This document shows positions 2,859 to 53,383 of a stretch of DNA of 64,000 nt, piece after piece (the stretch's first letter is position 1; every line of letters starts with the position of its first letter). Source of the stretch: Cyanidioschyzon merolae. Lineage: Eukaryota. The notes under the pieces were generated by a model, which saw nothing but the letters and a program-made list of their open reading frames with translations, was not told the origin of the DNA and ran no database searches. The stretch lies in NCBI GenBank assembly GCA_000091205.1, contig AP006502.2; one strand, given 5' to 3'. The position numbers and the translations under genes are program-made.

Positions 2859-3614
2859 CGTGCTTCACTGCTGCCAACTTGTCCCGCCTATACCAGGCGT
2901 CAGGTTCTACAAGTCGCCGCCTCGGGTAGCGTAACCTCTATGTGTAGTCGACGATAACGACGACAACGACGAAAACGTCGAAGTCGTTGGTGTATGCTGG
3001 CGTCTTTAGTGGTAATGACAGTTGGCGTCGTGGTGCCGGAGCAGGCCGCGGAGCTCATGTGCGTCGCTCCGCGGCTGGTGCTCCCAGCGCGCCGTCCGGT
3101 TTAGGCACGTTTTCCATCGCGATGACCCAAGTGCGTCAGCAGCTGATCCTGGCGATACAAGCGTTGTTGACGAGTGCGTACATTTGCATATGCACTGATG
3201 CTTGTGGGATATTGCGAGCGTTGAATAGGACTGCATGTATATGTCTATGGACACGAACACGCATTGGCTGGTAAACAAAGACTGAGGTACGTTCTGGTAG
3301 GGATCATTGCCGAGGCGATACGCTATCGCCAGCAACAAGAGCGGCATCACAGTTCCTGGGAGACGATTCGTGCGGTCCGACGCCGCGCTCGGTCGTTGGC
3401 AGCCAACAACCGAACATTCGTCTTCATAATCTCTATGCCGAGGCTGGTCTCATAAATCCATCATGGGAATACGCTGGGGGCGCGTCGTTCGGCAGATACT
3501 GTTGCAGGTTTTTGCACGTTTCGTGCTGCGTTTTTACGACGATGTCGGACACATCTGTGGCTTCCACAACGCTGGGTCACGCTGAGCATGTTCCAGCGTT
3601 CCTGAACGGGTGTT

Positions 3615-6744: not shown

Positions 6745-8694
6745 TCAGGCCGAGAGTACCGCACTCGACGCATTCGGCAACGCTTCCCTCCACTGCAGCG
6801 AATCCTTCAACGCCAGCGTAAGCATCAGTGCCTGGGCATAGTTCAGTCGCGGATCGCAAGCTGAATGGTACGCGCGAGCGAGGTCATGAACTGCGGTTCG
6901 GGTGGCGCCACCAAGGCACTCGGTCACCGCTTCGCCGCTCATTTCCAGGTGTATGCCACCAGCAGGCACACCTTCGGCAGCGGTAATTTCAAAGAATAAC
7001 CGCATCTCGTCGAGAACCTGCTCACAGTCTCGAGTCTTGAATGAATTGCCGTTCTTGTCCCGAACACTCTGGGTATTCGCATGCATCGGATCGCACATCC
7101 AGACGACTGCGAGGCCGCTGCGCTTCACCGCTGCCATGAGCGGTGGAAGCTTTCGCTGGAGAGCATCCACACCCATGCGTGTGATCAGTGTCAGACGTCC
7201 GGGAGTGTTCGCGGGATTCAGGATCTCGGCTAGCGCAAATACTTGCTCCAGTGTAGCGTTTCCAGACAGTTTCACGCCAATCGGATTGGAAACACCTCGA
7301 AGAAACTCAACATGAGCGCCATCAATCTGGCGAGTGCGCTCACCTATCCAGAGAAAATGAGCACTTGTCGCATAATACTGCGGCGCTGATAATAAATCGA
7401 TAGGCGATCCCGCGTCTCGGTTCAGGTGCTCCAGGGTATGTGCATTGCCCGAAGGAGACCAGTCGGCAAGGCGCACTAGGCCTTCCTCGTACGGAAGTAA
7501 AAGTGCTTCGTGCGACGTGAACACATTCTCGATCACGTTTGTGTCGATACTTGTTACATGGCGGCCAGTGCTGCTCATCACTATGATTTCTTCATCGATT
7601 CCTTGCACCAGGTTTTGAATCGCCTTCACCAGGTTCGAGTCCACGACGCTGTCCCAGGCCAGTTTCTCGCTCAAAATCCTCAGCGATTCCATCGGAGACG
7701 CATGCAGGTGCTCAAGAACACGCAGATGTTCCAGAGACGCGGACGCATGCCGGTACGCCTGCAAGAGTCGCTGTGGGTCCGGAGTTCGCGCTCTGCCATT
7801 CGGTGCTGCGGAGTGCACGATGTCGCCCCGGAACGACGGCAGCCCGTCCGCATCCACAGGAGCAGAGCGAGGCTTCGCAAACTGACCTGCTATGCGTCCG
7901 ATTCGAACGATACGCCGCTTGCTCCCAGTACTCGATAAGATAGCCGCCTGGGCAGCCAGCAAATGGTAGAGGCTTATGTTGTACTCGAGGGTGCGGCTCG
8001 AGAACGTTTCGGCACAGTCCCCACCCTGAATCACGAACGCCTCACCGTGACACGCCGCGGCCAAGTGCTCGTGCAGTGATCTGATCGATTTGGGTGTCAC
8101 GAGACCGGGGAGTGTGCGCAAACCCGCTTCGACGAGCGCCAGCTGGTCTTTATCCGGGTACACGGGTAGCTGGTGCGCAGGTCGCTGGCGCCAGGAGCTC
8201 GGTGACCACGGCTCCGACCCTACCTGCCGACCCCCGATCGAGACGCTGTTTCGCAGTCCGAACGCTCCGCAGCCATCGCCGAGCCGTACGCAGACCTCCG
8301 CGCCCCGTTCAACGTAGTAGACGCGGCTGCTCAGCGCGACGCTTCCACACCGACGCACCGCTTGCCAAGCAGCGCGCCCGCTCACTCTTCGCCGAAACGG
8401 ATTCGACACCACAAACCCTTCCATTGAACGTATAGTGCACGTAATAGCGGACGAAGGTCGCTTCGATGCAACTGAGCCCGCAACGGCTTCCGAAGCTGCC
8501 GCCCCCGGAAGCATTCTGCGCTTACAGCCAACCTCGCTGCTGCTGTTGCCGGACGCAAAAACGGCGGCAACCGGCATTCCGGCCGCCGCCAATGTCGACG
8601 CCTTCCTGCAGCGCATCCGGACACGTGTCTGGTTCCCGGCGGCGTTTTGATCATCGTTCACCTCAAATGTGTTCCACATTCCGGTGCAGGTCAT
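6745..8694 (-). CDS. 3-deoxy-D-arabino-heptulosonate-7-phosphate synthase, class II (plant/microbial type), with an N-terminal extension of ~170 aa.
   Basis: Class II DAHPS motifs: GGDCAETF, IGRIAGQFAKPRS, WIGERTRQxDGAHVEF, CDPMHANT, HLEMSGEAVTECLGG. The true start may be an internal Met downstream of the transit-like region. Confidence 0.9.
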   Translation of the reverse strand: MTCTGMWNTFEVNDDQNAAGNQTRVRMRCRKASTLAAAGMPVAAVFASGNSSSEVGCKRRMLPGAAASEAVAGSVASKRPSSAITCTIRSMEGFVVSNPFRRRVSGRAAWQAVRRCGSVALSSRVYYVERGAEVCVRLGDGCGAFGLRNSVSIGGRQVGSEPWSPSSWRQRPAHQLPVYPDKDQLALVEAGLRTLPGLVTPKSIRSLHEHLAAACHGEAFVIQGGDCAETFSSRTLEYNISLYHLLAAQAAILSSTGSKRRIVRIGRIAGQFAKPRSAPVDADGLPSFRGDIVHSAAPNGRARTPDPQRLLQAYRHASASLEHLRVLEHLHASPMESLRILSEKLAWDSVVDSNLVKAIQNLVQGIDEEIIVMSSTGRHVTSIDTNVIENVFTSHEALLLPYEEGLVRLADWSPSGNAHTLEHLNRDAGSPIDLLSAPQYYATSAHFLWIGERTRQIDGAHVEFLRGVSNPIGVKLSGNATLEQVFALAEILNPANTPGRLTLITRMGVDALQRKLPPLMAAVKRSGLAVVWMCDPMHANTQSVRDKNGNSFKTRDCEQVLDEMRLFFEITAAEGVPAGGIHLEMSGEAVTECLGGATRTAVHDLARAYHSACDPRLNYAQALMLTLALKDSLQWREALPNASSAVLSA

Positions 8695-9763
8695 CAGGTG
8701 CTTTTTCGCGGTTTTGTAGCGGTTGCGGTCGAAGTGCGTTCATTTTCAAACATAAGATACCCTAGGGAAAGGTGCGGACATAAAATTCGGGGAACTTGGA
8801 GGGCGGCATTGCTGGGTTCTACAAAAAACCCGAAAGAAGTCCATGTTCTCGCTGACCCGCGCGCGAAGCAGAGCGAGTGACGGACAGGAAGAAGAAGAAG
8901 AAGGAGATAGAGGAAACACTGTTTGCCTGACAAGTCGATGACGAGACTGCATTAGCACAGAGGGTATGCGTTCGAGGAATCCTTGCAATATTGAGTTCCC
9001 CTAGAGGCAGTGCATGTAAGGAGTTCGTAAACCTGAACGCTAACGCTGCTTCAAGTATAAGACGACGTGCTGTGCTGAGGACGAAACTCGAGGACCTGAC
9101 GCGAACCAGCATCGTCGGGCAGCCTCTCAGGCTCGAAGTATGCCTCGATAAACCGAAATCGATAGCAGGCGGCCAGTCAAAACAGGCTGGAAGGCGTCTG
9201 CGAGGGCGTAGATATATATAAACGCTCCATCGTCGTAGGGTGTTTACGAATGACTGAACGCTCAGATACTGCAGCAGCGCGTGCAGCGCATTCGCGGCAG
9301 CGCACACGCATGCGCAACGGCGCGACGATGCAGGCGCGCACATCGATCCAGTGCGTTGTTAGCGGACTGCCATACGCGGGCATCGAACACCAGCGTGTTG
9401 CCGGCGTGCACGATTCCTGTAGGCAACTTGCGGTAGCGACTGCCGCCTCGAGAGTGCAGCGGAGGAGATCACACACATAAATGTATTCCATTGGATTGGG
9501 GGTTCTCGGCGAGAAGGTAACCTACCGTGCAATCCATTCGAGATTAGAGGCTCTTCGTGCAACAGTCTCCGCAACCGGCAAATGCGCTACGGACATCGAG
9601 GGGCAGGGCGCTTTTCGCCAAGGTCTGTGCACCCGTAATGATAGTATCCAGCACCAAACAATCCGCGTGTGGAAGACGTCGTCCCCCAGGCCGGATGTCT
9701 CTCCGAAAGCAGAACCCTTATTCCCATCATTTCCTCTAGTCGTGGAGCACTGGTTTTGCTGGA

Positions 9764-15022: not shown

Positions 15023-16612
15023 GACTCGCTCGAGAGCGGCACGTTAGCCTCAGCCCTCAGGTCTCCATGTCCTTTTGTAGACGCTTGCAAGCGAGAGCCT
15101 ATCAGTCATCTCAGAATAAAATGGAACGGCCTCTCGAACTCGGGCGTACACTCCAATGTTTGGATGTTGTCCCGTGATTTTCAACACCAGCTTTTGCGGG
15201 ATTTTCTTTTCTGTGACCGCTTCCGTTTCGTATCTCTTACTTCCGGCTTTCAAGATGCGGGTCACTCCTGTCCCTCGAGCTCCACTGGAAACAGTCGGGG
15301 GATATTGATGGCAGCTTTTTCGTCCCGATTTGGCCGCCTCCAGCACTTGTCGACGCAGTTGACGTTCAGGTGAAAGTTGCGATCCTCGATTCGCTTGCGA
15401 TTCCCATCTTTATTGGAAGTAGTTATGGTGCGCCCTTCACAAAGCAAATGATTGGCCGTTGTTCGGTGTTCCCCTGGATCCACTGGACCTCATCGACCGA
15501 GCGCCATCGTGCGGCTCGTGAAATCCTGCCTCAGCGCTCGGCACCGGCCCATGACGGGTACAGTACGCTGCACTCGATGTCATCGCCTGTTTCCGCGCCC
15601 GATACCGTACCCTTCCATCACGTAGTTCCGCTGAGCGATTCTCTGAAACAGTACGTTGTCTGCCGTACAAGCAAACGCGCTTTGTTCCATTTGATAGAGG
15701 ATTTATGGAATACGATGTTGTCTATGATGAAATAAAATGCGGGAAGGACGATCCACGCTGAGGAACATCTCGAACAATGGCGATCCGGTCTACGCTTCCT
15801 TCATGAAAAGTGATGTCGTATGCTCCATTGGTATCGATTGCTGCGATGACGCAAGTGCTAGTCCGAGACACCTTTCCATGCAAATAGGAGAAACACGAAC
15901 ATATTCGAGAATATCTAGTAAGATGTATCATGGTGGTGCTGCCGAAAACAATGTCTTCGATGCTCGCACCGGGAAGACCGTTTGTCTTTCGAATGGGAGA
16001 GATTATTTGGCGCGACAAGTTCACCGAGATCCCCGCACAAGCGTATAACCAAGTCGTCCAGGGACGGTTTCAAGTGTCTTCCGTCGTCAATTGAGCGACA
16101 CGGCTAGCTGCGCCCACGAGTTACCTTGAAAAACCAAGATGGAAAACTTGAAGAACGGATGATTCTAGGCATGCATTAGATGATGATATCGATATTTTAC
16201 GAAACCTTGTGCGAGGCCGTCATGAACCAGTTGGATTCGGGTCACGTCACGAATTCCAGCGGCAGGGCGTCGAACGTGCCACATCCCGAAACACAACCGT
16301 GGATCCCGCATCGACTTTTGAACCCGATAAACCTCTTCGCATTACTAGGAATGCTGAGGTCTTACATTTAGAAGAACTCGGGAACAATCGCAAGCTAGAA
16401 CAGAGCGAGTCGTTCAGTGCTATTTTCTATGAAGGTGACGCGGGTGTCGAGCGCCCGGACGCGCAGCCCCTGGTGCGACCATACCAACTGTTCCGCTCCC
16501 GCTGCACAGATACGCGTTTCCGCTTCTAAAATAGGTCTAGGAAGCTGCCGCGGGACGGGAACGCTTTTCGTCGTTCCCAAACCCGGCTGGGTCCGCCGGC
16601 TCGGTACACAGC

Positions 16613-24637: not shown

Positions 24638-25843
24638 TTACTCCACAATCGCGGTCTCTCCACGTTCCAACAACTCCTGGACGGTCGGAAAGTCTTCGGT
24701 TATGAGCGTCATCAGCTCGTCGCGGCTAACGAGGCCGTCCGCGTTCGGGTCCATAGCCTTGTTGAAAATGCGGATAGCACTCCGCATCCGAGCGCGGTTG
24801 ATGAGGTTGCGAACTGTGCGCGCGTTAGAGAAGTATGGCATCTGCATACGCTTCTCGATGTACGCACGGCAGGCGGGGATCGCATCGTCTGCGATACGGT
24901 ACTCCATATCGCGGACCATCACCTTCGCGATGTCGACCAACTCCTCGAGTGTATAGTCCGGGAAGCTGATGTGATTTCCGATTCGGGAGCTGATGCCGGG
25001 GATATACGAATAGAATTTGTTCATGCGGTCCTCGTAGCCGGCAAAAATGACCACGAGATCCTCACGCTGCTCCTCCATGACGTTCAGCAAAATCTCGATG
25101 GCCTCGACACCGTAGTCGCGATCATTCGCGGCATTGTAGAGGTAGTACGCCTCGTCGATGAAAAGCACGCCTCCGAATGCGCGCTTGATTACCTCCTTGG
25201 TTTTCGGTGCGGTATGACCCACGTATTGTCCGACGAGGTCGTCGCGCGTGGCAACGATGAGATGGCCCGATCGGCTGTAGCCCATGGCCTTCAGAATTTG
25301 ACCCATGCGCATCGCAACAGTCGTCTTGCCCGTACCAGGCGAACCAGTAAATGCCATGTGCAAGGATGGTGTCGTACCAGTCAAACCCAAGCGGCTTCGC
25401 AGCTTGTCGACTACCAGCAGTGCGGCGATTTCCCGAACCCGATCCTTGACCGGTTTCAGACCAACCAAGTCGTGGTCGAGCTTCTGTAGGATATCGAGCA
25501 CGCCCTCTTTCTGAAGAAACTCGTCGATAGTGCCAGCCTCTTTGTCGTCAGGGATACTCATCAGTTCTTCGATTTTGCGTTGGCGCCGCAAACGCTCCTC
25601 GCGACGCGCCCGGTCTCGCCGTTCCGCCTCCTCGCGAGCGAGACGTGCCTCCACGTCACGCTCCTTGAGCGCATCACTAAGTCGACGTTCAGTTGGTTGC
25701 TCATAGTCTGAGCTTTCGTCAGCACGCAGACGAAAAGCTGCCGGGACAGCAGCGCCACTACGCTTTGAATTAGAGCACTTTGCGAGTGCCGGCGCCCGAA
25801 TGCGCAGTGAAATCCCCTGAAGACTAGTCGTAAAACCCAACAT
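24638..25843 (-). CDS. cbbX: CbbX, the red-type Rubisco activase (AAA+ ATPase), with a charged N-terminal extension of ~100 aa.
   Basis: Walker A is GSPGTGKTTVA and Walker B is VLFIDEAYYL. The CbbX-specific C-terminal region is ..FAGYEDRMNKFYSYIPGISSRIGNHISFPDY... The ORF stops at TAA. Confidence 0.9.
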   Translation of the reverse strand: MLGFTTSLQGISLRIRAPALAKCSNSKRSGAAVPAAFRLRADESSDYEQPTERRLSDALKERDVEARLAREEAERRDRARREERLRRQRKIEELMSIPDDKEAGTIDEFLQKEGVLDILQKLDHDLVGLKPVKDRVREIAALLVVDKLRSRLGLTGTTPSLHMAFTGSPGTGKTTVAMRMGQILKAMGYSRSGHLIVATRDDLVGQYVGHTAPKTKEVIKRAFGGVLFIDEAYYLYNAANDRDYGVEAIEILLNVMEEQREDLVVIFAGYEDRMNKFYSYIPGISSRIGNHISFPDYTLEELVDIAKVMVRDMEYRIADDAIPACRAYIEKRMQMPYFSNARTVRNLINRARMRSAIRIFNKAMDPNADGLVSRDELMTLITEDFPTVQELLERGETAIVE

Positions 25844-26817
25844 GCTTCAAAGTATATATGTCAGTCTATGAATTGAACTATATTACCTGTGTTAAAGTGA
25901 ATTTTAGCACCGTATGTTACGAGCAGTCGCGAAAGCTCCACACACGCACACACACAACCGTTGTATACCGAGCGGAGCAAAGAATTCGAGCCATTCGTGT
26001 GATGCGACGCAGCATGCGCTCGCCCGCAGCCGCTCGCCCGCAGCCGCTCCGTCGTGCGCATGCCGCGCCGCATCACACGATCCCAGATGTGACCGATCGC
26101 GGCGAACGACGTGACATCGATTTCCTTCCGATTCGATAGGGCGTGTGTCCGCTGACCACGGATCCAGGACTGCGGGATGGATGCAGGTACTCGGGGAAGC
26201 GTGCATCATGTTGCACTCTAATTTCGATTACCGTTAAGTTCTCTTGGGCGTGCGGGCCGTTTCGTACGTTCTATCTTGAACCGAGTGCCTGCCGTGCTGT
26301 ACCCATCATAGCACCGAGACCGCTGGCACGGATGCCGTATTGAGAAAGCACGCGGTATTGCGCGAATACTGAGGGTGTCGGCTCGATGCCATGATTCGTT
26401 CAACGCGGCACCGCAGTGCATAATCGTGCCGGGAGCCAGCAAGCTGTGCATGCGGACATCCTGTCTGCCGACGCGCGGAGCGATATGCTACGAGTCCGCT
26501 GCGACCAGGGCGACGCCCAGACGCAGCGTAACCGTCCCTAGTGCAAGAATAAAGTGCGATGCCGACGATTTGCTCAGGTATTGCCACAGCACGCGCCACA
26601 GAACAGAGCGTGAAACACGAGTCCAACAGACTTGGACGCTCCGCGGGACCTAATACCGAGGAGGTAAACTCTCGAGAATATGGAAAACCTTTTCTTCCTT
26701 CCACGCTACCGAGAAAGCGAAACGAAATTATGATACGGTTGCTAGTCAGTGATAAGTTTCTGTTCTTTCCGCACCATACTGCATCACAGGGATGATGCGT
26801 GCGCAGCTACGAGCCAT

Positions 26818-26970
26818 CGATGCAGGGGCAGGGCCTCACAACAGACTCGGTGCACTGCGGAACTTGCGGCCTGATCCATATCTTCAAGGGAACCGATGCA
26901 GGGGCAGGGCCTCACAACAGACTCGGTGCACTGCGGAACTTGCGGCGTGATCCATATCTTCAAGGGAACT
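26818..26970. repeat. Tandem duplication of two 76-bp copies in the CbbX-DDX3 divergent intergenic region.
   Basis: The units are 26819-26894 and 26895-26970. They are nearly identical, differing at one C/G and at the 3' end. Confidence 0.9.
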
Positions 26971-26990
26971 ATGGATAGTCGCTCGACAAA

Positions 26991-27095
26991 CTTGGAAGTA
27001 CGGCGTGGAATGATGGGCGCTTTCCCGGAGGCCGATACCCATCCAGCCCGCAATCTGGGATCCATGGTCCATGGGAACGTTTTGTCATCGAAAAG
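26991..27095 (+). repeat. Conserved non-coding element, copy 1. Its ~60-bp core is ~85% identical to 33495-33553.
   Basis: Both copies share the core cccgcaatctgggatccatGgtcCatggGaaCgttttgTcatcg. This copy lies ~245 bp upstream of the DDX3/Ded1 ATG and contains the ATG of a 66-codon upstream ORF (27071..27271). Confidence 0.7.
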
Positions 27096-27338
27096 AAAAA
27101 TCCGTCGCTGCAGCGGCGGCGACGGCGGCGACGGCGGCGGCGGCGGTGCCCAAACGCGCCCCCGCGAATCGCGTTACCGTTTCACAATCGCTTCTGCAGT
27201 CGTTTGTATACTGTGGAGAGAATACTGACGAAAATGCCAGAAGAAACAACATCAACAGTGTAAAGGAATGATCATAACGAGCAGAGGGATACGAGGGAGC
27301 GTCACGGTTCAGAAAGGGACGCCAGAGACGGCGCAAAG

Positions 27339-29222
27339 ATGGCTCGATCTTACGTACCGCCCCATATGCGGCGGCAACTGGAACAGCAGCTCCGAGTAGG
27401 TGCGGCAGCAACCGAGCGCCCACAGCCGTTTCAGGGAAACGGTGCTCCCGAGGGGCGTGCTGCCTCATCTGGGGGCTTCTTTCGAAGTGGTTCTGGGGCG
27501 TCAAGAGGAGGCAGCTCTTTTGGAGGTGGCGTGATGGGTGCTCGGGAACGCGGCACCGGGAGCGCTGCTCCGGGTGGCGGTCGGCGTTGGGGTGCGGCTC
27601 CGACAGGCCCTGGACACCAATCAGGCGCGTCATCGCGCTTGCAGCGCCTTGGATTGTGGGAGGAAACAAACCCCTACTACAGCAGTGGGCTGGGGAAGCC
27701 TCAGGAACAGGATCACGCTGCCGCTGATGCGAACGGCGAGGTTCTAGAGCTTTTCAACGGCCAGAATACTGGCATCAACTTTGACAAGTACGACGATATT
27801 CCAGTAGAAGTTTCCGGTGAGAACGTCGTACCGGAGATCATGTCCTTTGAGACCAGCGGTATGGATAAGATTCTCCTGCGGAATGTCGCACTGTCAGGGT
27901 ACCGCAAGCCCACACCTGTGCAGCGGCACGCGATCCCGACGGTGATGGCTGGTCGCGACCTCATGTCATGTGCCCAGACCGGAAGCGGGAAGACTGCAGC
28001 GTTTGTGCTGCCTGTTCTACATCAGATGCTGTTGATGGGCGGCCCCGCGCCACCGCCATCCTCGTCGGGCGTAGGCGGGATTTCCTCGCGCTCCCGTTGC
28101 TCGTATCCAACGTATCTGATTCTGGCTCCGACGCGGGAGCTTGCATCGCAAATCTTCTCTGAGTGCCGGAAGTTCTGTTACGGCACCAGTATTCGCGCCG
28201 CCGTGATCTACGGTGGCTCCGAAAATACCCGTGAGCAACTGCGCGCCGTGGAGAATCAAGTTGATATTGTGGTGGCAACACCCGGGCGCCTTTTGGATTT
28301 TATTGACCGGGGCCGCATCCATTTGGCAAACGTCCGGTTCCTGACCCTTGACGAGGCGGACCGTATGCTCGATATGGGTTTCGAGCCTCAGATCCGGCAG
28401 ATTGTGGAGAACTGCGACATGCCGGCGGCTGGCCAACGCCAAACGCTCATGTTCAGCGCAACCTTCCCACGGGAAATCCAACGGCTTGCCTCCGACTTTC
28501 TGCACGACTATATTTTCCTTGCCGTGGGGCGAGTCGGTTCCACCACGGATTTCATTGTGCAACGTATCGAGTTTTGCGAGGACCATTTGAAACGAGAGAT
28601 GCTGCTAGATCTCTTGAACAGCATACCCGGCTTGACCTTGGTTTTTGTAGATACAAAGCGAGCCGCCGATGCTCTCGAGGACTTTTTACTGCGACACGGG
28701 TATGCGGCGTCGTCGATTCACGGAGACCGGAGCCAACGCGAGCGCGAAGACTCGCTCGCAGCTTTCCGTTCAGGACAGACGCCTATTCTCGTTGCAACGG
28801 ATGTGGCTGCTCGTGGTTTGGATATCCCGAATGTTGCGCACGTCGTCAACTACGAGTTGCCAGCAGCCATTGATGACTACGTGCATCGGATTGGCCGAAC
28901 TGGTCGAGCTGGCAACCAGGGCATCGCGACCTCTTTTGCGAACGAAAAGAATCGGGGCATTGTACGTGACCTCATTGAACTCCTACAGGAGGCCGGCCAA
29001 GAGGTTCCCTCCTGGCTCTATACGATGTGTCAGGCACCAGTAGCCCGGAGCGGTAGCGGTCGAGCGGGGCGTGGCGGTCGTTTCGGCGGACGCGATATGC
29101 GTCGCGAAACGGGTGCTCCACGTCGACCTGCATTCGCAGGGAATGCATCATCGACCTCGACGATGCGCGACGAGCCCTGGGGAGGTGGCAACTGGCGTGC
29201 CTCCGGCGGAAGCGCCTGGTAA
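27339..29222 (+). CDS. DED1: DEAD-box ATP-dependent RNA helicase of the DDX3/Ded1 family.
   Basis: Helicase motifs are present: [56 protein letters not shown]-rich N-terminus and RGG tail follow the Ded1 pattern. The ORF stops at TAA. Confidence 0.9.
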
Positions 29223-29621: not shown

Positions 29622-30899
29622 GGTACTACAAGCAGCAATTGCGCCTTTGGGAGGATGCACCATCGACACATCGATTTTCTGTAATCAAAAACATGTGCCT
29701 GTCGGCAAGCGACATCCTCTGGTACGCCATGAGCCTTCCAAGGGTGCAGCGCCTGCACCACGGCGCACAGCATCGCTGAAGGTACTCGAAGCAGCTGGAT
29801 AGCTGGGGCCTGGGAATGGGTGTGCGTGGGGAAAGATCACGGCGGACGATGCGCTGGGGGATACCCAGGGGAAAAAATAGATTGGATCTGTACGCATGCC
29901 AGGCTAAAATGGAACGCGTCCCCCAGGCGAACTCAGGTGTCTGCTCTAAGGAAAGGGTCTCTTTCCATGATCATGATCAGCACCAGCGTTTGCAGGCTTT
30001 TCCGCTACTGTCCGTTTTTCCTCTCTCGTTCTCTCTTATATCCGGCATTGCACAGGTCGGACGCTCGTATCCCTTGCGAGGTAATCCCAACAGTCGACGG
30101 ACGTGGACAGTGGCTTTAGAGACTGGATTTCGGAGTTTCCGACGGTTGTCGACGCATTTCACGTACAAACCGAAGTTGCGATCTACGCTTTGCGAACCAT
30201 TTCGATTTCCTTCGTATGCAACCTCTGTGCATGCTGCGCAGCGGTAACGCTTGACGCTGATCAGGTATACCCATAGGTCCATCATTTCTCTCGTGGCGCG
30301 GAGGCCGCGTTGCGGCGCATGAAGGCTTGCACCCTCGCTCAATACACACGTTCTTGTTGGGTACTGAGAGCTTCCCCATATGCTTCCAAAGATTTCCGCG
30401 CCTACTTTCGTTCTTTAACGATCACGCGCTTCTTCGGCACGGTGCCTGCGGCGCGCTATCCGCTGCGCTCGCAAGTGCAGGCCCTTCTATTCGATGCTAT
30501 ATTCGTGGAGCGCCAAATTACTCACAGTGACATAAGTAACGGAAGAAGAACCCAACTTAGAAAGCTTTCCGATCCGGTTACTGTCCCTTCTTGGAGAACG
30601 GTGACAATCTCGCCACTGAGAGCGATCGCCGTTTTGACTCAAGTCCGAGTTGAAGTCCCTCTGCCATGCACACAGAAGAGACGGGAGCCTTTGCAAGTAT
30701 ATCCCGTCGGGGGGACCATGCTGCTGTGGACTTTTGTTTCGTTGATGTCCACAAAAAGAGAAGGACTGGCAGTTCGAACGTTGTTCTTTATTTGGTGCGA
30801 CGAGTCCATTGAAATTTGGGCAAGAGCTGACGAACAAGTCATCAAGGGACGAGGTCAAGTATTTTATTCCGTGAATCCGGCGGTTCGAAATGCTGCACC

Positions 30900-33400
30900 C
30901 ACGAGTTGCCATGAACCAAAATGATCGAGAACTTGAAGCGTATGTGATTTGACGAAGCTACACATAGGGATTGGACACGAGCGGAGGCTTTTAAATGTGA
31001 ATCGCATGATAAGATCGGCTATTAAATGAACCCTTTTTCGATAAAGTTGCGAATCATCTTGATTCTAGTGACGCTACGAAATCCGAGTAGACAGCATCGG
31101 AGGAGCCGCTTCGAAAGCGCGACCGAGAATCCGAGAAATTCCAATGAATCCATTAGCACCCTGTGTTCACTATCCTCTTTTTATACACATGTGATCAGAG
31201 AAACAAAAACGCTTTCTTCGAACGTCCAGGATAAATGAATACCTACTCACAGACGCTTCCCAGTCTTTTCCGACCGGCAGCCTGCTATCGGCTTCAGCTT
31301 CTCCTTGTACACTTTGAGCCTGAAAGGTTGCCCCATGAAGTTGGATCACCTCAGGTCCGCAGATCTCGTCTTCTGCACCGCATATCGTCTGGCGTGGATG
31401 GCGGCGTTGAAGTCTCGGTTCACGACCTCCATGCGTTTATTGCAGCTGGTTGGACTCACTATCGCGAGGCTCACTCGAACTTTTGCATTCTGTACCACTA
31501 CAGTCCCGCCATTGGCCTGTCGAGCAAACACCTTTTTTTTTGTCAGTGTCCCTCTTCTTCGTCACTTGCTCTTCTTCGTTCGATGGCCGGCGAGCATATT
31601 GTTTTCGTCCATTTCGGGCGCCCGGCGATGACGGGCCTGCAGGATCCTCGACTGCCATGTGCATAACTGTCCCTTGGATGTTTTGTTTCTTTAAAATGAA
31701 CGCACTTGTTTATGCCCCTTTGTGGTGACCTTCACGGACGGAGAAGGGCCTGCGGAGGAACGACGCATGATATCCCGATGTGTCGCCGTGTGCTGAACGC
31801 TCTAGCGATTCACCTAGAGGATCGATCAATACGTTTCATAATAGACAACACGCCTTCCATGGGCTTCAACCACGGAGCGTACGGAGGAACGAAAAGCAGC
31901 TCTACCCCGATAGAGTGCGCAAAAGCTCGGACGCAATGGGAACGCTGAAATGCCACGTTTTCCAACAGAGGGACGTCACCAGACCCACAGGTGAAAGGTC
32001 TTCGATCATTCAACAAAGTGGTTCATGCTGGCCTGTGAGCCTGCTCTACGAGCGAAACCGAAGGCTCCACTGGAATCCAGTGCACAGCTAGAACACATGA
32101 TGATGTCCTGGTTCTCTTCGAGTTCGATCATATATACAACGGGCCCCATCACCTCGAGTACCCGTGTACGCTCAGTCGATTTCATCCGATGGACGTGTCA
32201 TCTGCGGAGGGAAAACAAAGCAACATAACTCCGTTTCATACCGACCGCTGAGTTCCAGGACCGCTATTGTTGTGATTTCGATGGTAAATGGCCGTGCGTG
32301 AACCAGGACTTTTTCTGCGCTTGTATTCCAACGTTTTCAGGACTATACGAACAAACAGTGAAGAAACAGAGACGGTCATGGTGGCTACTAGCGTCGCTCT
32401 CTGCTTGCTGTGCGATGATCAATCGGTCGTTTACGATCATTGGCAGCAAACAGTCTTTGAGAATGCACATATCTGGCACGGAGCGCTTGTTGTTGTTTCT
32501 TTCAGTATTCCTCAACTATCTGGGTACATTGGTATGACCAACCTGAAGGAGTAATGCAGTCCTCCATGTGCACTTCCGTAAAGCGCATTTCCTATGGGCA
32601 ACTCGGCTCCGATCTACACTGTACATTGGAGTGTGATATCGATCGTCTGCTACGCAGCGTGGCAGGTGGCGGCACGAAACTGTTTTGAACGACTGTAACG
32701 GGAGGTGAATGGTGGAACCTGCAGTTATGGTGCAGAATGATGAATGACCTCACGTACGCGGATAACGTTGGCGCCCAATCGAAGATGTTTCAGTTCGTGA
32801 CTGCGAACCATCGATCAACGTACAGAAACGATCCGATTGCTTCATCCTATGGATGATGGAAAAAGAAGAGAAAATTACTATTGTATTGGCGAAAGTGTGC
32901 CGAAAGAACAGAAACAAACCACTAACTAGGAACTCGATAACAGTAGGTTTCCCTCTGTACGATAAACCTTAGAAAAGGGGGACGCTTTCCGTACGATCGA
33001 AAGTTTCCCTTGTAGACGGAAGAGCCCACAAGCCGGACGAGTCTCCGGGGCTCGTACTTCATGCCCCTCCCCCAGTGGCGGATGTTGTGACGAGACGTTA
33101 GCGACTCGTTCACATTGCGAATGCACTCTGGAACTCTGGGCAGTTGGACGGTGTCTGTGCGTCGCCCTGGTCCGGGTGGACTCCTGGAATATCGCTTCGC
33201 GCTGCTGCAGGCAATAGGTCTATATGCACAGCTTGCGGGGTTTCAGAATAATTATGCACTCTGACCCCGCTTCAGGTGAAGCACTCCTCGACCCGATGCC
33301 CTCAGTGGTATGACGAAGCCGTTCTGACTCCGTGATGCATCTGCTCCAGCGTTTTAGGCGCTACTGCCGGTGCATTGATGCAAGAACTCGGCACACGTTA
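30900..33400. mobile_element. AT-rich block with no long ORFs that harbours the mariner-like remnant. It is probably a decayed DNA-transposon insertion, and its boundaries are uncertain.
   Basis: GC content drops against the flanking genes. It contains a (T)10 run and the transposase fragments. A weak inverted match (gctcttc..cgt.c near 31568 and 33023) may mark degenerate TIRs. Confidence 0.35.
31810..32515 (-). pseudogene. Degenerate mariner-like (Tc1/mariner superfamily) transposase remnant.
   Basis: Minus-strand fragments in three frames align with the Mos1 transposase. CFFTVCSYSPENVGIQAQKKSWFTHGHLPS matches IVTGDEKWIHYDNPKRKKSWVKPGQPS, with the first DDE Asp lost. LVEQAHRPA matches LLHDNARPH. 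LLFVPPYAPWLKPME matches LPHPPYSPDLAPSD. Stops and frameshifts separate the fragments. Confidence 0.55.
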
Positions 33401-33449
33401 GAACGTACAAAACAACCAGCACATCCGAAAGAAAGTACAAGCAATGGAA

Positions 33450-33555
33450 CTTGGAGGTAGGGTGTAGCATCATGATGGAAGCTTTTTCGATTGCGATTAT
33501 CCATCCCGCAATCTGGGATCCATAGTCAATGGAATGTTTTGGCATCGGAACAAAA
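33450..33555 (+). repeat. Conserved non-coding element, copy 2, overlapping the annotated 5' end of the KMO ORF.
   Basis: It aligns with 26991-27095 over ~105 bp. The core is ccatcccgcaatctgggatccatagtcaatggaatgttttggcatcgg. Confidence 0.7.
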
Positions 33556-35805
33556 TCCATTTCTGCGCCAGAACAATTTTTCACTTGCACGCGAGACCAC
33601 CCAGAGCCGGAACTTGGGGCAAAGAGCGCTATGGCGTCTTCTGAAAGCTTCTCGGGCAAGGAATATACAATTGCTTCGAATGACCACACAACTGACCCGG
33701 TTCGGCGTGTGCTCCACTTTCATAGCGAAGCGAGTAAGGGCCTCAAGAACCGGGAAGAGGGCTCGTCAACCAAGCCGTCTCCGGCAAAGACGTTGCAGTT
33801 GTCTGAGAGCTGCGAACAAGACGCCCTTGCTTGCGCCTCAGAGGTGCGTATCCGAACGGTTCGCTCGTCACCAGAGTCTGGGTCACCAGGTGTCGCCGCT
33901 TCGACGGTGCTCGCACGTGACCCCGCTGTCGTGCTGGGTGCCGGCCCAGCGGGCTGCCTCATCGCACTCGAACTCAGTCGTCTTGGTATTCCCGTAGAAG
34001 TTTTTGAATATCGCTCCGCGCATTATTTTAGACCCTATATAGAGTACGCTGGAGGTGGCGGTGATCGGGCTCCTTACCAGCGATATCGCGGACGATCGAT
34101 CAATCTGGCACTTTCGGCGCGAGGTTTGCGTGCACTGGAAACCGTCGGACTCGCACAGCGCATCCAGCAAATAGGTGTGCCTATGCGGGGGCGCATGATC
34201 CACGATACAGCAGGACGCGTACACTTTCAGGCCTACGGTGGTCGTCCCGAGGAGTACTTGCTCTCGGTATCGCGCACCACGCTGAATCAGATGCTCGTGG
34301 AGACCTGTCTGCTCGATGAGCGCGGCCTGATTACGATGCATTTTGGAAAGAAATGTACCGACATTGATCTCGACCAGTGCGTCTTGACATTCGAGGATGG
34401 ATGGATGTCACCGAGGCACCACGGTTGGCCAGAATCAAATACTGAGGACACGGTTGATTCGCCACCGAGTAGCCGCAGCCTCGAGCGAGAACGAAGAGCG
34501 CGAAAGCGCGCAGCACCCGCGCGCGGCTTCCTGGGCACCAAAGAGAGAACGCCGCGTACGCCGCAGCACGACGCTACGCACAGAGAGCCTGGTGCCGAGG
34601 CCGTCCCCGGGTCGCTGATGTCGTCAACCGGACGCTCGACGTCAGCCGGAGCGGTCTCGACGCGTCATGTCACTGCAAGTTTTATCATAGGTGCGGATGG
34701 TGCACATTCGCGGGTGCGCCAAGCCATGCAACGACTTGTGCCTTTCAATTACGAGCAGGAGTACATCCCAACGGCGTACAAGGAGCTCTCGATTCCGTCA
34801 CGCATACAGCGAGATGACACCGGGGGCTCTTCGGGCGGTTACTTGTTGGCACCGCACGCGTTGCATATCTGGCCTCGACATCGCTTTATGTTGATTGCAC
34901 TGCCAAACCGAGACGGCTCCTTCACTGCTACGTTATTTATGAACAGAGATGCGGATCCAGGAGCGCCAGACGTGCCTTCGTTTGCAACCGTTCGAACGCC
35001 TTCGCAAATCCAGCAATTTTTCGAGTCCTATTTTCCGGATATTTACGCGCTTGTGCCATCGCTGGTCGCAGATTACCAGAGTAACCCGGTTGCTCCGCTC
35101 TTTACGATTCGCTGTGCACCATTTCATTACCGCGGCAGGGCGGTTCTCGTCGGAGATGCAGCACACGTGATGGTGCCGTTCTATGGTCAAGGTTGCAATG
35201 CCGCCATGGAGGATTGCCGGATTCTGGCAAATTTCTTCCGTGAAGAGATACGCCTCGCTGCGCTTCGAGCACCAAACAGACGCGTGCGGGGATGCGTGCG
35301 GCTCCCTGCCTCGGACTTGACGGTTGACTTCGAGGATGGCATTGCAGAGGACGACTTGACAGATGCGAAAGGCCTGCAGCGTGCTCTAGCCGATGATGGA
35401 TATCTGGGCGGTGTCGTAGATTCGGAATCCGAGGGCGCGGCACTTTTGGACCTGGAGCGGGTGTTCTCTGCCTATAGCGCTGAACGGAAACCGAATGCTG
35501 ACGCGATCACCAACTTGGCGCTCGAAAATTACTGGGAAATGGCCAGTAAGACCTCGTCGCGTCTTTTCCGCTGGAAACGTGAGATCCAAAACCAACTTCA
35601 CGCGCTCATGCCTTGTTATTTCATGAGCCTTTATCACATGATCTCATTCAGCAACATTCCCTATGCAGAAAGCGTTCGCAGAGCTCAGAAGCAGGATCGT
35701 GTCATGAACGCGCTCTTCCGCTCATTAGGCTTGGGCTGTGTCAGCTTTGCTGGATTCATGCTGTGGCGCGCTTGTCACTTGCTACGCAAAGCACAGAGAA
35801 ATTGA
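33529..35805 (+). CDS. KMO: Kynurenine 3-monooxygenase (FAD-dependent) with low-complexity insertions and a C-terminal TM segment.
   Basis: The FAD GxGxxG motif is VVLGAGPAGCLIALEL. Other motifs are FIIGADGAHSRVR and the diagnostic KMO motif VLVGDAAHVMVPFYGQGCNAAMEDC. A C-terminal hydrophobic anchor is present. The more likely start is the ATG at 33631 (MASSESF). Confidence 0.8.
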   Translation: MECFGIGTKSISAPEQFFTCTRDHPEPELGAKSAMASSESFSGKEYTIASNDHTTDPVRRVLHFHSEASKGLKNREEGSSTKPSPAKTLQLSESCEQDALACASEVRIRTVRSSPESGSPGVAASTVLARDPAVVLGAGPAGCLIALELSRLGIPVEVFEYRSAHYFRPYIEYAGGGGDRAPYQRYRGRSINLALSARGLRALETVGLAQRIQQIGVPMRGRMIHDTAGRVHFQAYGGRPEEYLLSVSRTTLNQMLVETCLLDERGLITMHFGKKCTDIDLDQCVLTFEDGWMSPRHHGWPESNTEDTVDSPPSSRSLERERRARKRAAPARGFLGTKERTPRTPQHDATHREPGAEAVPGSLMSSTGRSTSAGAVSTRHVTASFIIGADGAHSRVRQAMQRLVPFNYEQEYIPTAYKELSIPSRIQRDDTGGSSGGYLLAPHALHIWPRHRFMLIALPNRDGSFTATLFMNRDADPGAPDVPSFATVRTPSQIQQFFESYFPDIYALVPSLVADYQSNPVAPLFTIRCAPFHYRGRAVLVGDAAHVMVPFYGQGCNAAMEDCRILANFFREEIRLAALRAPNRRVRGCVRLPASDLTVDFEDGIAEDDLTDAKGLQRALADDGYLGGVVDSESEGAALLDLERVFSAYSAERKPNADAITNLALENYWEMASKTSSRLFRWKREIQNQLHALMPCYFMSLYHMISFSNIPYAESVRRAQKQDRVMNALFRSLGLGCVSFAGFMLWRACHLLRKAQRN

Positions 35806-42270: not shown

Positions 42271-42550
42271 TGCCCAGGTATCTTGCCTCGACTGTCAAAC
42301 AAACGCGTGACTGCCCACGTGGTGATTCGTCAAAAGCCGCACGCAGTTATCCAGTCGGGACGTTCACAGCCAAGAACGTTTTCGTAACGGTGATGAAGCA
42401 GGCGCGAATCCGTGACGCCACCGCGCACAAGTCGTCGCAGCAGCTGTGCATCGATCGGTGAACGCTGCGCTGCGGCCGCTGCTGTCGAGTAGGCGCTGCT
42501 GGGGGGCTGCAGTGATGTCCGATGAACATGGAAAAATGAATTTTGCGTTC

Positions 42551-43328
42551 TGTCCCTGTCATGCGAATGTTATTTCCGAGGTATTCTAGGTGTACAGCAT
42601 CGACATTGTCTGTGTACCAAGTGGAGCACACGGATTCGTGTGTAGGTCCAGGATTCGCGGTGGTCTTTTTCTCGGAATACGCCTTCGACGCTTTGCCGTC
42701 GGCGTTCGCGACGTCATCGGAATCGAGATGATTCGCGACGCTCTCCGAGAACACTTCAAGAAAGTAACCCGGATCATTATGCAGGGCATGCGTACGGGCC
42801 CCGGCGATTCTCCGTTGCGTACATGGAGCATGCCCAAACCGCGCATGCTCCAAGATACCGATCTCTGTTTCAGGACAGCTTGTGGGCGCAGCAGTGCTTG
42901 CCGCAGGACTGACGCGGAATAAATCGGGGTATCGTCCCGTGACGCCTTTTTCGCAAGCACATACCAAGCGTTCACTGAAAATCACTTGTGAACTGTTCGT
43001 AGACTCCGTTCGAAGCACACATCCTCGATTCCGTGTGGGCATCCACGACGCGCCATTTGACACCAGCGTGATGCCTCGTGCCTTGAACAGTACTCACCCT
43101 GACAACGGGCGAAATCGGGACTGGAAAGCCACCATCACCATCCTTTGACTGCCGAGCACGAAGCCGGCGAGAAAAGAAAAACCGGCGTGCTACGAGCTGG
43201 AGATAGTCGGGCGGAAACGGCATCGGTGTCGGAAGAGCGCGCAACGGCTTGTGTTGATGCGCATTGGCAGAGACTCGAACGCAAGCGCATACGCCTATGT
43301 TGCTACGCCTGTTCCATTTTATACTGAC
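42551..43328 (+). repeat. 778-bp dispersed repeat, copy A. It is ~99% identical to 53384..54161 and in direct orientation.
   Basis: Base-by-base comparison shows only about seven mismatches. The termini are 5'-TGTC...GAC(A/G)-3'. It contains the 5' ~170 codons of a minus-strand ORF (42347..43063) and about 265 bp upstream of it. Confidence 0.9.
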
Positions 43329-46591: not shown

Positions 46592-47841
46592 TGGCGGTAC
46601 ACCCTTTCACGTTTCCGTTATCGCTCTTAGCAGGGACAGCAACTCCACGCAGAAGCTGCGAAGCAAGCAAGTACCCGCTGTAGCTCAAGGCGGACGCCAG
46701 CGCTCGACGCGTGCCTCGGGATCTTCGCACGCGCGCCTGCGCTGCCGTTGGGCAGCCGCAGGTCGCTTATGATCGATGGTTTTTTTCGATGACAAAACGT
46801 TTCCATGGACTGCGGAAAACAGATTGCGGGTAGGTAATGGCAATCGAAGAAGCGTCCATCATGGTGCTACGCCCTATCTAAAAGTTCTATTACTTATAAT
46901 TCCCTTCGGATGAAATGGTCGTTTCGTGCGTTCTCTCTTTCGCCGAGTGCCTACCGCGAGCACCCGCCGTCGCGCGTATACCGCTGGTGCGCATGCCCCA
47001 CCGAGACAGAACCGCCTTTCTATGCTACTGAGGGCGTCCGCTCGAAGGATGATTCACCTGACACAGAATCAGGGCTCATTATCATTCTGGGAGCCTGCAA
47101 GCTGCGAGGCAGATATGCCGCTTGGGGCAGAGCGAAGCGATACACTAGGAGTCTACCGCGATCAGGACGACGCCCAGACACAGCATCCCGCTCCTAGTCT
47201 CCGAATATACTGCGCGTTGACGAGTTGCTCAGGTCTCGCTAAAGCACCAGCTACTGCAGAGTCGCATGAAGCACGAGTCGGGGAGACTCGTCCGGCTCGC
47301 GGGACCACCTGCCAATAAGATAAACTTTCGATAATATGGAAACCATTTCCCCTTTTAACGGTTATCGTTGAGGGCTGCGCAATTTTCATCATGTTGCTCG
47401 TTAGTGGTTCGTCTATGTTCTTTTGTCTGCAGCGCAGTCCATACGCGCACACCCGTATCTTGTAGGCATCAGACAAGACGCGTATCAGGCGGTTGAAAGG
47501 AAACGCGATCCTGACCATGAGCTTGTAGCTCTATGGTAAAAGACGTATTAGGGTTGAAGACGTAGCAAAGTATAGTGTTTTATCCCAATTGTGCTCCAAC
47601 ACTCAAGATAGTGTATTCATGTGATTTTTCACGGTTTATAGCAGAAGCGTTCGAAGTACGTTCTTTTTCTAAAAATAAAAATAAAGTTGTGGAAATAGAA
47701 GTGGAAGATCCTGGAGAGCTGGTATCCCCGGTTGCCGGAAACAGACGAATAACATTGCGGAGCAAAGAGGAATCGGGGAAGACGAAGAAGCAAAAAGGGG
47801 AGGCCCGACGCCGAAAGCTGCAAGAAAGACGATAATGCGAC

Positions 47842-49551
47842 GTGATGGTGGTGAAAGCCTGTCTTCTTAAACATATCAAGGATCCTTACAGGGAAAAGTT
47901 GCGAGACGCTATCAGAAACCGTATCGACTCGTACTCCAAGAGCATCGTCAAGGCGTCGTCAGGTCTGATGCATTTGGCGAGGGGGATGTATCGCGACGTG
48001 AAGCACATGGAAACAGTCGAGATTCCGGACGAGTTTTTCGATAAGACCTTTAGTCGTCAGCTGATGTTTGGCACAGGGGAAGCTCCGAGGGAAAATGAGC
48101 GAATGCATGCCCTCCACGAGAAACATCCCTTTTACAGGTTCGAGGGTAATCGAAACAAGGGGGACTGGGGTATTTACGACAATGGGGCGATGAAGTACCT
48201 CACGAATCTGAAAAACCATTTGACAGTGAACCTCGAACGTTTCATGATACGCGCCGTGTTTGCGCTCCACCCGGGCATCTCTCGCAATGGAAAATGGGCG
48301 ATTATCAGTGGCATCATGAAAGATCGCAAGCATGAAGACGAGATCGAATTTGTCGGAGAAAAGGCGTCAAACGAGAGCACGAGTGAGGATTCCGTCATCC
48401 GCGCGGTTATACAAGAGCATCGTGCAGTCTCGGGGCTGACGAACCCAGCAGAAAATGTATTAGATTTGAAAAAAGATAAGGAAAGATACTATCGCCTCGT
48501 CCTGCGCTATTTCGTGTTTTTGGACCGTGAACTCGAATGCAAGGCAGAGATGAAGCTGAATGGGACAAAAAATGAAGATTCGGGGAGACGGAAGGCTGCG
48601 CTTCTGGGTAAGCGCTTCAACGTCGTTCCGTTATGCAACATCAAGTCACATTTTGACACCATCGACTCCAGAATCGCTCACGGCAGCATAAAGGAGATCA
48701 GTCCGGAGTTCGATGTAAGGAGGACAGAGTTCACTGGTGGAAACCGGGAGACGTACTGGAAGAACATCTTCAATTTCAAACGGCTCAAAGTCAGCAAACA
48801 AAAGGTATTCACTGGGATGATCGAAAACAATGGGGTAGCCATGTGTGTCCACTATCGGCGGTCGAAGGTGGATCGCCCAATCGTGCCTTTCGCTTCGCCC
48901 TCTGCGAAGCATGAAGAAAGCAAAGAGGCGGATCCTGTGATGCAGGAGGTGCAGGATAACGACTCTGTCGTTGGCGCGGACCCGGGGAACACGAACATCG
49001 TAACCATCGCAGTACCCAAGCACGGGGTATATGGTAACGACGGCAATTTACGTCAGAAAGACATGCGTCTTTTGAGAATCTCGAGAGCGAGATGCTACCG
49101 AGAATCCGGTATAATGAATGTGAGGAAGAAAATTTCTGCATGGGATGCAGGAATGAAGGATCACCTGGAAGCCACGAGCGCGGTGACGAGCCGAGAAGCA
49201 GACTTTAAAGCTTTTCGGAAATTCGTGGAAGTTCGTGTTGCGCATTGGGATGCCCTGTGGGAGGAGTATACCGAGCCCAGATGGGCTCGTTTGCGTATGA
49301 ATCTATACTGTGGAAAGCAGCGGGCGTTCGCGAATTTTTTCAATGAGTTGAGCGCCTTGAAGGAGGATGAAAATCAGAGGCTAGTAGTAGCATACGGAGC
49401 AGGGCGATGGACGACCCAAAAAGGGTGTACACCAGCTCCAACGACGAGGGTGTACAAGGAGTGCGCACGGCGTTTCGTTACGAACCCGGTAGATGAGTTT
49501 CGAACATCGTATACACACCATGAACTGTGGTGTACACTTCAGAGGGTCTAG
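47842..49551 (+). CDS. Fanzor-like protein (eukaryotic TnpB/OMEGA-family RuvC nuclease homologue). This is the main ORF body, and it is interrupted at the C-terminus.
   Basis: A ~380-aa N-terminal region precedes the RuvC-I-like motif [16 protein letters not shown], whose Asp codon is at 48979-48981. Near the end, [15 protein letters not shown] resembles the TnpB TS-x-C zinc-finger lead-in. The ORF ends at an in-frame TAG (49549-49551). An in-frame TAA at 47833 separates it from an upstream 86-codon ORF with a K/R-rich NLS-like tail. Confidence 0.7.
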
Positions 49552-49763
49552 ATGGAAAAGTGTCCGGGGAGCCCCGAGGATATAGCAAAGTACGGACCGC
49601 TGACAGACGAGCAAATGGAAAGGATAACGAAAGTGCGCAGGCTACTTGCATTAGTGAGTAAACTCCTAACGGCACGAAACAGGTGGAGTTTGTGAACCGA
49701 GACTTGAACGCCGCTATCAATGTAAGGAGATGTGCGGTACTGGAGAATAGACCTCCAGACTAA
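49552..49763 (+). other. Displaced C-terminal segment of the Fanzor/TnpB-like gene carrying the RuvC-III motif. It reads as either a pseudogene tail or an exon after short introns.
   Basis: In the frame of positions divisible by 3, codons 49683..49763 read VEFVNRDLNAAINVRRCAVLENRPPD*, with RDLNAAINV being the canonical TnpB/Fanzor RuvC-III motif. It is separated from the main ORF by the TAG. A 29-nt GTGAGT..CTAAC..AG element (49654-49682) would splice frame 1 into this frame in phase. Confidence 0.6.
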
Positions 49764-50020
49764 ACAAGAGGGAACTTTGATGGACAATTCTGAAAGTTTT
49801 ACTATATGAGAAAAAGTTGGAAGCAGTTGTGGGTGGCCGGTCGAACAAGTCTGGCAGGCGTCTGCACATCAGTTGGAGACGTTTCGTTTAGGGTGTGTCG
49901 TTCGCCACTACTGTACACTGCCGGCAGCATCGTTCGACTTTAGATAGGCGTTTGGTGTTGGCTGCGTCTTAGACCTATAACGAGGCAGACCGATACGAAG
50001 CTCGGTGAAAGGAGCCGTTT

Positions 50021-52922: not shown

Positions 52923-53383
52923 GCGGCGTTCGTTGCACGTCCCTTCGGCGCGAGTCTGGTGCTCCCTGGCCGCTCACGAACGTCCTCTGTGACCAGCAAA
53001 CGGGGTCGCGCTGCCTCAACCAGAGCGTCTTGCCCGTAGAAGGCATGGACTTTGCTCAAACTCGTACAAGTGCCTAGCGGTGGTACTCAGCACGTGCGAC
53101 CAGGCAAGCAGCGGCAGCAGCAGCAGAAGCGAAAACATCGATCATTCGGTCTGTCGAGTCGCGCACCCGCAAACGCCACCTACCTCCGCGGCACCCGAGC
53201 TCGGCAGAAGTTCTCTTGCTGCATCGACGGCACGGCGCTGTCGAAGCGTTCAAGGTAAGTATGCTGTTGGAGATGAAAGTCAGGTCTATGAGGTCAGTGT
53301 TTAGCACTGTGCCTCATTTCGTGCCCGGAGACCTGACGTCAGCATTCGTGATAGACTGAACTAGCGCACTGGACTACCCGCTT

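Follow-up and report, generated by a model that had tools for sequence, protein, structure and literature searches.

The window analysed here is a 64,000-nucleotide stretch of the Cyanidioschyzon merolae genome (GenBank assembly GCA_000091205.1, contig AP006502.2), in which Pfam searches identified an AAA ATPase gene, a DEAD-box helicase gene (DDX3), a KMO-like FAD monooxygenase gene and an ELO gene (Table 1). The DDX3 protein matched a hot-spring metagenome protein at 100%, the Cyanidiococcus yangmingshanensis protein at 86% and the Cyanidium caldarium protein at 76%, which places the window in a red alga of the Cyanidioschyzon type. By exact look-up the DDX3 ORF of the window had no record, and its 662-aa gene call (P0001) did. 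Ten metagenome contigs (L001-L010) carry the same locus at ~99.1% identity, with all of the repeat copies described below present.

An earlier note had drawn attention to a non-coding element of ~100 bp shared by two stretches of the window, 26991-27095 upstream of DDX3 (hereafter copy A) and 33450-33555 upstream of the KMO-like gene (copy B). The similarity is real and lies far above chance: window self-BLAST aligned 26989-27111 with 33448-33566 on the same strand (74.6% identity, 126 columns, E ~2e-13), and direct alignment of the two intervals gave 80/106 identical columns (75.5%). Within them, a core of 34 nt (27041-27074 and 33499-33532) aligned without gaps at 91% identity. Both the number of copies and the length given in the note proved too small, however. 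A degenerate 28-nt core pattern matched the window four times, where shuffles expect 0, the other two matches lying on the minus strand at 26149-26176 and 46803-46830; because the pattern was composed from these same four window copies, this count shows its specificity only and is not an independent test. Homology also continues past ~100 bp, for a total of 645 bp in copy B and ~190 bp in copy A, and self-BLAST aligned 32897-33563 in opposite orientation with 26113-26774 and 46780-47423 at 63-70% over ~650 bp.

CMe-1A is a Fanzor1 element of C. merolae with a 3169-bp consensus and ~150 copies at ~80% to that consensus, without terminal inverted repeats (TIRs), and its 5' 635 bp form a separate repeat, TE-N2_CMe, of ~70 copies (Bao & Jurka 2013, Mobile DNA 4:12, PMC3627910). 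The CMe-1A consensus was taken from Additional file 2 of PMC3627910 and mapped onto the window by blastn, giving four placements of the left end with E-values from 1e-21 down to 0. Against the reverse complement of consensus 1-95, 26991-27095 was 82.0% and 33450-33555 was 82.8% identical; since each interval is 82-83% identical to the consensus and the two are only 75.5% identical to one another, they would be independent descendants of one master copy. On the basis of these alignments, the two stretches very probably descend independently from the ~100 bp at the 5' terminus (the left end) of CMe-1A / TE-N2_CMe, and both have decayed. As judged from the extent of homology, copy B forms the outermost stretch of a 636-bp module present in full, and copy A is a 188-bp stub that retains the terminus. 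The noted piece and the Fanzor gene read on opposite strands. The module is a discrete 5' unit that also occurs alone, with matches ending at consensus 636 in 26153-26768, in 32903-33547 and in metagenome contig L038.

Table 1. Genes and CMe-1A-derived features of the window, and metagenome loci with inverted junctions (marked by contig).
Feature	Position	Strand	Basis or remark
AAA ATPase	24638-25843	-	Pfam
DEAD-box helicase DDX3	27339-29222		Pfam
KMO-like FAD monooxygenase	33529-35805		Pfam
ELO gene		-	Pfam
CMe-1A internal-deletion derivative	8657..9201	+	blastn; consensus 794-973 joined to 2850-3084
Stand-alone 636-bp module, TE-N2_CMe-like	26133..26768	+	Consensus 21-636 at 26153-26768, 73.2%
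Position-1 end of that module	near 26133		Faces AAA-ATPase gene start at 25843
76-bp x 2 tandem duplication in copy A	26818..26969		TRF period 76, 2.0 copies, 98% matches
Copy A, left-end stub	26903..27090	-	Consensus 1-179; blastn 70.2%, 191 columns
Copy A position 1	27090		Faces DDX3 ATG at 27339
Remnants (Fanzor C-terminus + right end)	31250..31707	-	blastn; consensus 869-1018 + 2833-3083
636-bp module, first ~100 bases = copy B	32903..33547	-	Consensus 1-636, 79.9%, 646 columns
Copy B position 1	33547		85 nt upstream of KMO-like ATG 33632; ATG 33529 inside module
Full-length CMe-1A	46787..49950	+	Consensus 1-3169, 84.2%, 3175 columns
5' module of full-length copy	46787-47423	+	Carries core at 46803-46830
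Fanzor1 coding remnants of full-length copy	47761-49787	+	tblastn of family proteins
Inverted junction, L038	3961-4598 with 4622-7135		Module with CMe-1A-derived unit
Inverted junction, L019	7464-7696 with 7710-8265		Module with CMe-1A-derived unit
Inverted junction, L017	9086-9328 with 8808-9072		Module with CMe-1A-derived unit

At least eight further copies were found in hot-spring metagenome contigs; five distinct copies were retrieved with the core pattern and five more were reached independently through the ORF. Measured along the module, conservation of the core is 0.85 against 0.6-0.75 pairwise elsewhere, an excess that is inflated because five of the copies had been picked out by the core pattern itself. 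Relative to CMe-1A / TE-N2_CMe as published, nothing essential differs: the window copies (636-bp module, full 3169-bp copy) are at 73-84%, likewise lack TIRs, lie ~16-30% from the consensus and include a Fanzor1-type ORF. Homology seems to run ~10 nt further at both ends than in the published consensus, with T-rich sequence before position 1 and a common flank, TTNGGTGGTG, past position 3169. The family is already known: it was published in 2013 together with its consensus, copy number and Fanzor content, and the repeat class was described in 2004-2007.

In the stand-alone module at 26133..26768, which is inverted relative to copy A, the terminal ~20 nt are diverged but visible in alignments. 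The 76-bp unit inside copy A duplicates consensus ~113-188 and is homologous to the module; its number is polymorphic in natural populations, with two units in the window and in L001/2/7/9 and one in L003/4/5/6/8/10. The full-length copy lies in a 3.2-kb unit (46727-49986) that recurs in other metagenome contigs at 70-82% identity; it retains an open frame of 569 codons (47842-49551), followed by a frameshift near 49662-49683, and its coding region is followed by a right end of ~70-160 nt. In the remnants at 31250..31707 nearly the entire ORF is deleted, with Fanzor residues 700-752 found by tblastn at 31486-31331, and these remnants belong either to the same decayed element as the module at 32903..33547 or to a neighbouring one. 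The derivative at 8657..9201 has neither the 5' module nor the ORF. Deletion derivatives of this kind recur (window 8657-9201 and 31250-31707; L026 3851-4389; L037 10823-11371; L017 8389-9072; L021 2995-3656), and in each of them the Fanzor upstream region (consensus ~683/790-~970/1018) is fused to ~2833-3084, which holds the C-terminal codons and the right-end region. Such a derivative could be a non-autonomous element with the guide-RNA region only.

Homologues of the reading frame of the full-length copy form 87 protein clusters, without exception from the same sample type. The longest members of the family (700-750 aa) contain the motifs GADPG, VDEFRTS and NRDFNAAINI, which we take to be the split RuvC signature of TnpB/Fanzor nucleases. 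An AF2 model, with a pLDDT of only 53 and TM-scores of 0.2-0.28 to the Fanzor1 structures, returned Fanzor1 SpuFz (Spizellomyces) and GtFz (Guillardia) as its top five Foldseek PDB matches (E 7e-7 to 1e-4), the next PDB match having an E-value of 0.5. PDB sequence searches with a single protein and with a 15-sequence profile gave no matches, and the local Pfam library gave none except a faint 11-residue match to the Cas12f1-like TNB domain (E 0.23); the precomputed label on the family is PF26935 (DUF8286). Taken together, the motifs and the predicted fold assign the ORF of the full-length copy to Fanzor1, a eukaryotic TnpB-like RNA-guided nuclease. One metagenome copy, L033, has an intact 752-aa Fanzor ORF but no core, only the last ~30 nt being retained; the core is therefore not required for the ORF to be intact. 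A second, distant Fanzor/TnpB-like remnant, broken into short ORFs and 23-35% identical to CMe-1 family proteins, was seen at 59411-60475 (+), and the adjoining stretch 58179-59255 is 61% similar to L024 2831-3921.

The Fanzor ATG lies at consensus 906, so that the 636-bp module is non-coding upstream sequence; tblastx between copies of the module gave about equal scores in all six frames, which likewise argues that the module is non-coding, and in the element body there was a slight excess for the Fanzor frame. The omega (guide) RNA of Fanzor elements originates at the right end, where it overlaps or follows the 3' end of the nuclease ORF, and the flank serves as the guide (PMC10432273). Because the guide RNA is made there, the noted left-end piece is not guide RNA: it lies ~900 nt upstream of the Fanzor ATG, on the other strand and at the end opposite to the omega RNA, and an omega-RNA reading of the two stretches was dropped on that account.

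The right end itself is kept from the Fanzor stop codon to the terminus, plus ~10 nt, and is a candidate omega-RNA region. Stems with variable loops are found there (window 49790-49960 and L013, L017, L019, L033, L034, L036, L037 and L038); an Alifold consensus of the right end contains stems in which 4/50 pairs are compensatory, with a slightly unfavourable covariation term (+1.65). A terminal hairpin, read by eye and absent from the Alifold consensus, occurs there in two versions, CGTTCGA-CTT-TCGAACG and CGTTTTTC-TTTT-GAAAGGCG.

A structured RNA at the left end was considered as well; the earlier note had listed a small ncRNA among its options. The repeated stretches would then be several copies of a structured small ncRNA gene or of a riboswitch-like leader. 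All nine copies are compatible with a small hairpin, CCG....CUG(N7)UGG....UGG, with 98% of cells paired, but the same pairing was reached by 219/500 shuffles. The consensus fold of the tip amounts to only -4.2 kcal/mol with zero compensatory pairs, single-sequence folding of both strands gives z-scores between -1.45 and +1.28, and no Rfam family matched at the gathering threshold. The folding check that the note had suggested therefore lends the ncRNA option no support, with no covariation, z within 1.5 sd and no Rfam match, and we regard that option as wholly improbable.

Among the classes named in the note, a MITE fragment came closest, in that both stretches are terminal fragments of a published transposon family; the TIRs of a MITE are lacking. 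No pair linking both termini was found by an inverted-repeat scan of 46700-50050, and MITE was rejected as a class on the scan and literature for the module (no TIRs) and on the one full-length copy inspected (no target-site duplications, TSDs). The inverted pair 26133-26768 / 26903-27090 consists of two separate copies and not of the TIRs of one element. A trypanosomatid retroposon of the SIDER or '79-bp signature' type was also tried and dropped: genes in the window alternate strands, and DDX3 places the window in the Cyanidiales.

TE-N2_CMe might instead be a SINE-like retroposon, transcribed in the orientation used by the note and copied by the reverse transcriptase (RT) of a non-LTR retrotransposon; the noted piece would then form its 3' end, closed by an A-rich tail, and 5' truncation would account for the short copies. 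Such a mode fits a constant end with a variable inner boundary (consensus 1-179 in copy A, 11-212 in L013, 10-264 in L024) and an 8-13-nt A-rich stretch just beyond consensus position 1 in most copies (e.g. GAAAAGAAAAATC, AAAAAAACC), and a source of RT exists among the 26 non-LTR retrotransposons of C. merolae, three with intact RT (Nozaki 2007). By its appearance, however, the A-rich stretch belongs to the element itself and does not represent a poly(A) tail, since it is short, interrupted and alike among copies. No TSDs were seen at the flanks of the single full-length copy inspected, and ARAGORN and Rfam gave no matches to a tRNA-like head. The module is, moreover, antisense at a fixed junction (636/637) in full-length CMe-1A and flipped in place in L038, and this combination fits recombination or DNA-level insertion better than a SINE. 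We consider retroposition of this kind very unlikely, and the left end of CMe-1A / TE-N2_CMe stays the preferred identification.

At three loci, 14-24 bp separate the position-1 end of the module from consensus 660-683 of a CMe-1A-derived unit, and the arrangement is inverted with respect to the published consensus (Table 1). These inverted junctions suggest that CMe-1A is made up of two parts, TE-N2_CMe and a distinct Fanzor unit beginning near position 660.

The surroundings of the left end were compared over 13 distinct position-1 ends, of which the window supplied four, the core-pattern scan five and ORF-based look-ups four. An ORF start lies 85-350 nt in front of 11/13 of them. Eight of these 11 ends face host ORFs and three face CMe-1A-derived units beginning at consensus 660-683, as in L038, where the flipped module faces such a unit. 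Pfam supports four of the host ORFs (AAA ATPase, DDX3, KMO and an MFS transporter in L034); a lyase-like gene (L013) and an acyl-CoA-synthetase-like gene (L024) were identified by reading the translation only, and the remaining host ORFs have a faint CBS match (L037) or, for one of 308 aa, no Pfam match. Against p = 0.5 the count of 11/13 is nominally significant (one-sided ~0.01), but against a null of p ~0.65, in which insertions are tolerated mainly upstream of genes, it is not. The right end of full-length copies faces host 5' ends as well (5/6, at 70-540 nt), so the bias belongs to the location of the whole element and not to its left end. The note's statement that both stretches lie just upstream of a gene on its coding strand holds for 11/13 copies in upstream position and co-orientation, with the correction that only one side of each element borders a gene start. 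The counts are read most simply as whole elements occupying DNA upstream of genes, although such a passive model explains 11/13 only if insertions are biased to upstream regions.

A more active relationship with the adjoining genes could take two forms: the outward-reading tip may have been exapted as a promoter or 5'UTR module that serves the adjoining gene, or TE-N2_CMe may integrate preferentially, in fixed orientation, a few hundred bp upstream of ORFs. TE-N2_CMe would then move as a unit of its own and insert or persist a few hundred bp in front of ORFs so that position 1 looks toward the start codon, which may cover host genes and, in the flipped arrangement, the Fanzor unit itself. DDX3, KMO and other genes of this very compact genome might in that case draw some promoter or leader activity from the outward-facing tip. 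Besides the aim of the position-1 end at an ORF start in 11/13 copies, such a role is favoured by gaps between element and ATG of only 85 nt (KMO) and ~110 nt (the L013 gene), which leave scant space for an independent promoter, and by the transcription of C. merolae repeats (Nozaki 2007). Weighing against it are the similar placement of the opposite end (5/6), the loss of significance under the p ~0.65 null, tip ATGs and a uORF that are not conserved among copies, and the silencing mark H3K27me3, which about half of C. merolae repeats carry and which goes with weak expression (PMC5405695). The orthologues of DDX3 and KMO in Cyanidiococcus lack the element. We judge exaptation or preferred integration to be unlikely, and so too the separate mobile unit with an active tip; since the elements are upstream and co-oriented in 11/13 cases, an incidental promoter contribution may nevertheless occur.

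The syntenic Cyanidiococcus locus (L011) has the same gene order, and the repeat was absent from its 22 kb by nhmmer, blastn and tblastn (no match). The proposal that the two stretches form a shared cis-regulatory module is not supported, the element being absent from the orthologues of both genes. Between DDX3 and KMO the spacer measures 785 bp there against 4409 bp in the window, much of the enlarged spacer being filled by a second dispersed repeat family. The divergent AAA-DDX3 spacer is of nearly the same length in both, 1495 bp in the window (25843-27339) and 1498 bp in Cyanidiococcus (L011 8502-10001); ~0.8 kb of it is TE-N2_CMe-derived in the window, and none is in Cyanidiococcus. That second family (59-61% identity), which has no match to the CMe-1A consensus, was observed at 29895-31170, 15107-16153, 42612-43075 and 53445-53908. 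Direct repeats of 783 bp, 99% identical (42546-43328 and 53379-54161), bracket 10.8 kb of sequence in which the full-length CMe-1A copy lies, and L032 runs from 43328 straight into 53384, reflecting either an assembly collapse or a deletion/duplication polymorphism.

Both start codons pointed out in the note are present as described. The ATG at 27071 opens a uORF of 66 codons that ends at 27271, and the annotated KMO start, ATG 33529, lies within the repeat and in frame. Homology of the KMO protein with its Cyanidiococcus orthologue begins only at residue 116 of the long ORF, which makes the first, repeat-internal ATG doubtful, as the note had suspected. The suggestion of a 5'UTR module with an upstream start is not supported as a designed feature, since the ATGs are not conserved among copies and the distance from element to gene ATG varies over 85-350 nt. 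A GCG/GGC trinucleotide run of ~11 units (27113-27146) lies between copy A and the DDX3 start, within the uORF.

Several described systems resemble the element in part. A 'novel interspersed repetitive element' of C. merolae, with a mean size of 3.2 kb, accounts for 5% of the genome and is transcribed, and its truncated ORF shows faint similarity to WSV486 of WSSV (Nozaki et al. 2007); these repeats were later named 'WSV repeats', with H3K27me3 on half of all repeats (Mikulski et al. 2017, PMC5405695), and Fanzor1 has been listed in WSSV (Bao & Jurka 2013, PMC3627910). CMe-1A shares with them the 3.2-kb size, the dispersal, the decayed ORF and the link to white spot syndrome virus, and from size, host and viral link the two are probably equivalent. 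The left end (LE) of IS200/IS605-IS607 TnpB transposons and of other Fanzor transposons is similarly non-coding and precedes the gene for a TnpB-family nuclease, the guide RNA being encoded at the other end, and TIRs are absent. At 636 bp, however, the CMe-1A module is far longer than an IS200/IS605-IS607 LE (~100-200 bp) and multiplies alone, and CMe-1A has no linked TnpA-type transposase and no detectable conserved subterminal hairpin or target-adjacent motif. Tf1 of fission yeast is a promoter-targeting retroelement. Its placement ~100-400 bp upstream of ORFs is similar, but it belongs to a different element class, and the upstream placement of CMe-1A, a putative targeting, rests on only 13 copies.

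In the proposed account, the tip would be best preserved for being a cis-acting terminus needed by the mobilising machinery, and the copies that spread would be those that kept it intact. The remaining part of the 636-bp module probably serves the Fanzor gene as its upstream region and 5'UTR. No transposase is associated with the element, and alignment of the flanks gave nothing convincing as a TAM-like motif or TSD, with no motif in common. Its closeness to the DDX3 and KMO starts is accounted for most simply if elements survive in the intergenic stretches ahead of genes, the genome being very compact, and a host function is not required. For annotation of the C. merolae genome, the value of the identification is that ATG 33529 and the 66-codon uORF at 27071 lie in transposon-derived DNA and are not to be read as conserved gene features; of modest interest for the family is that both ends of a Fanzor element lie unusually near host start codons.
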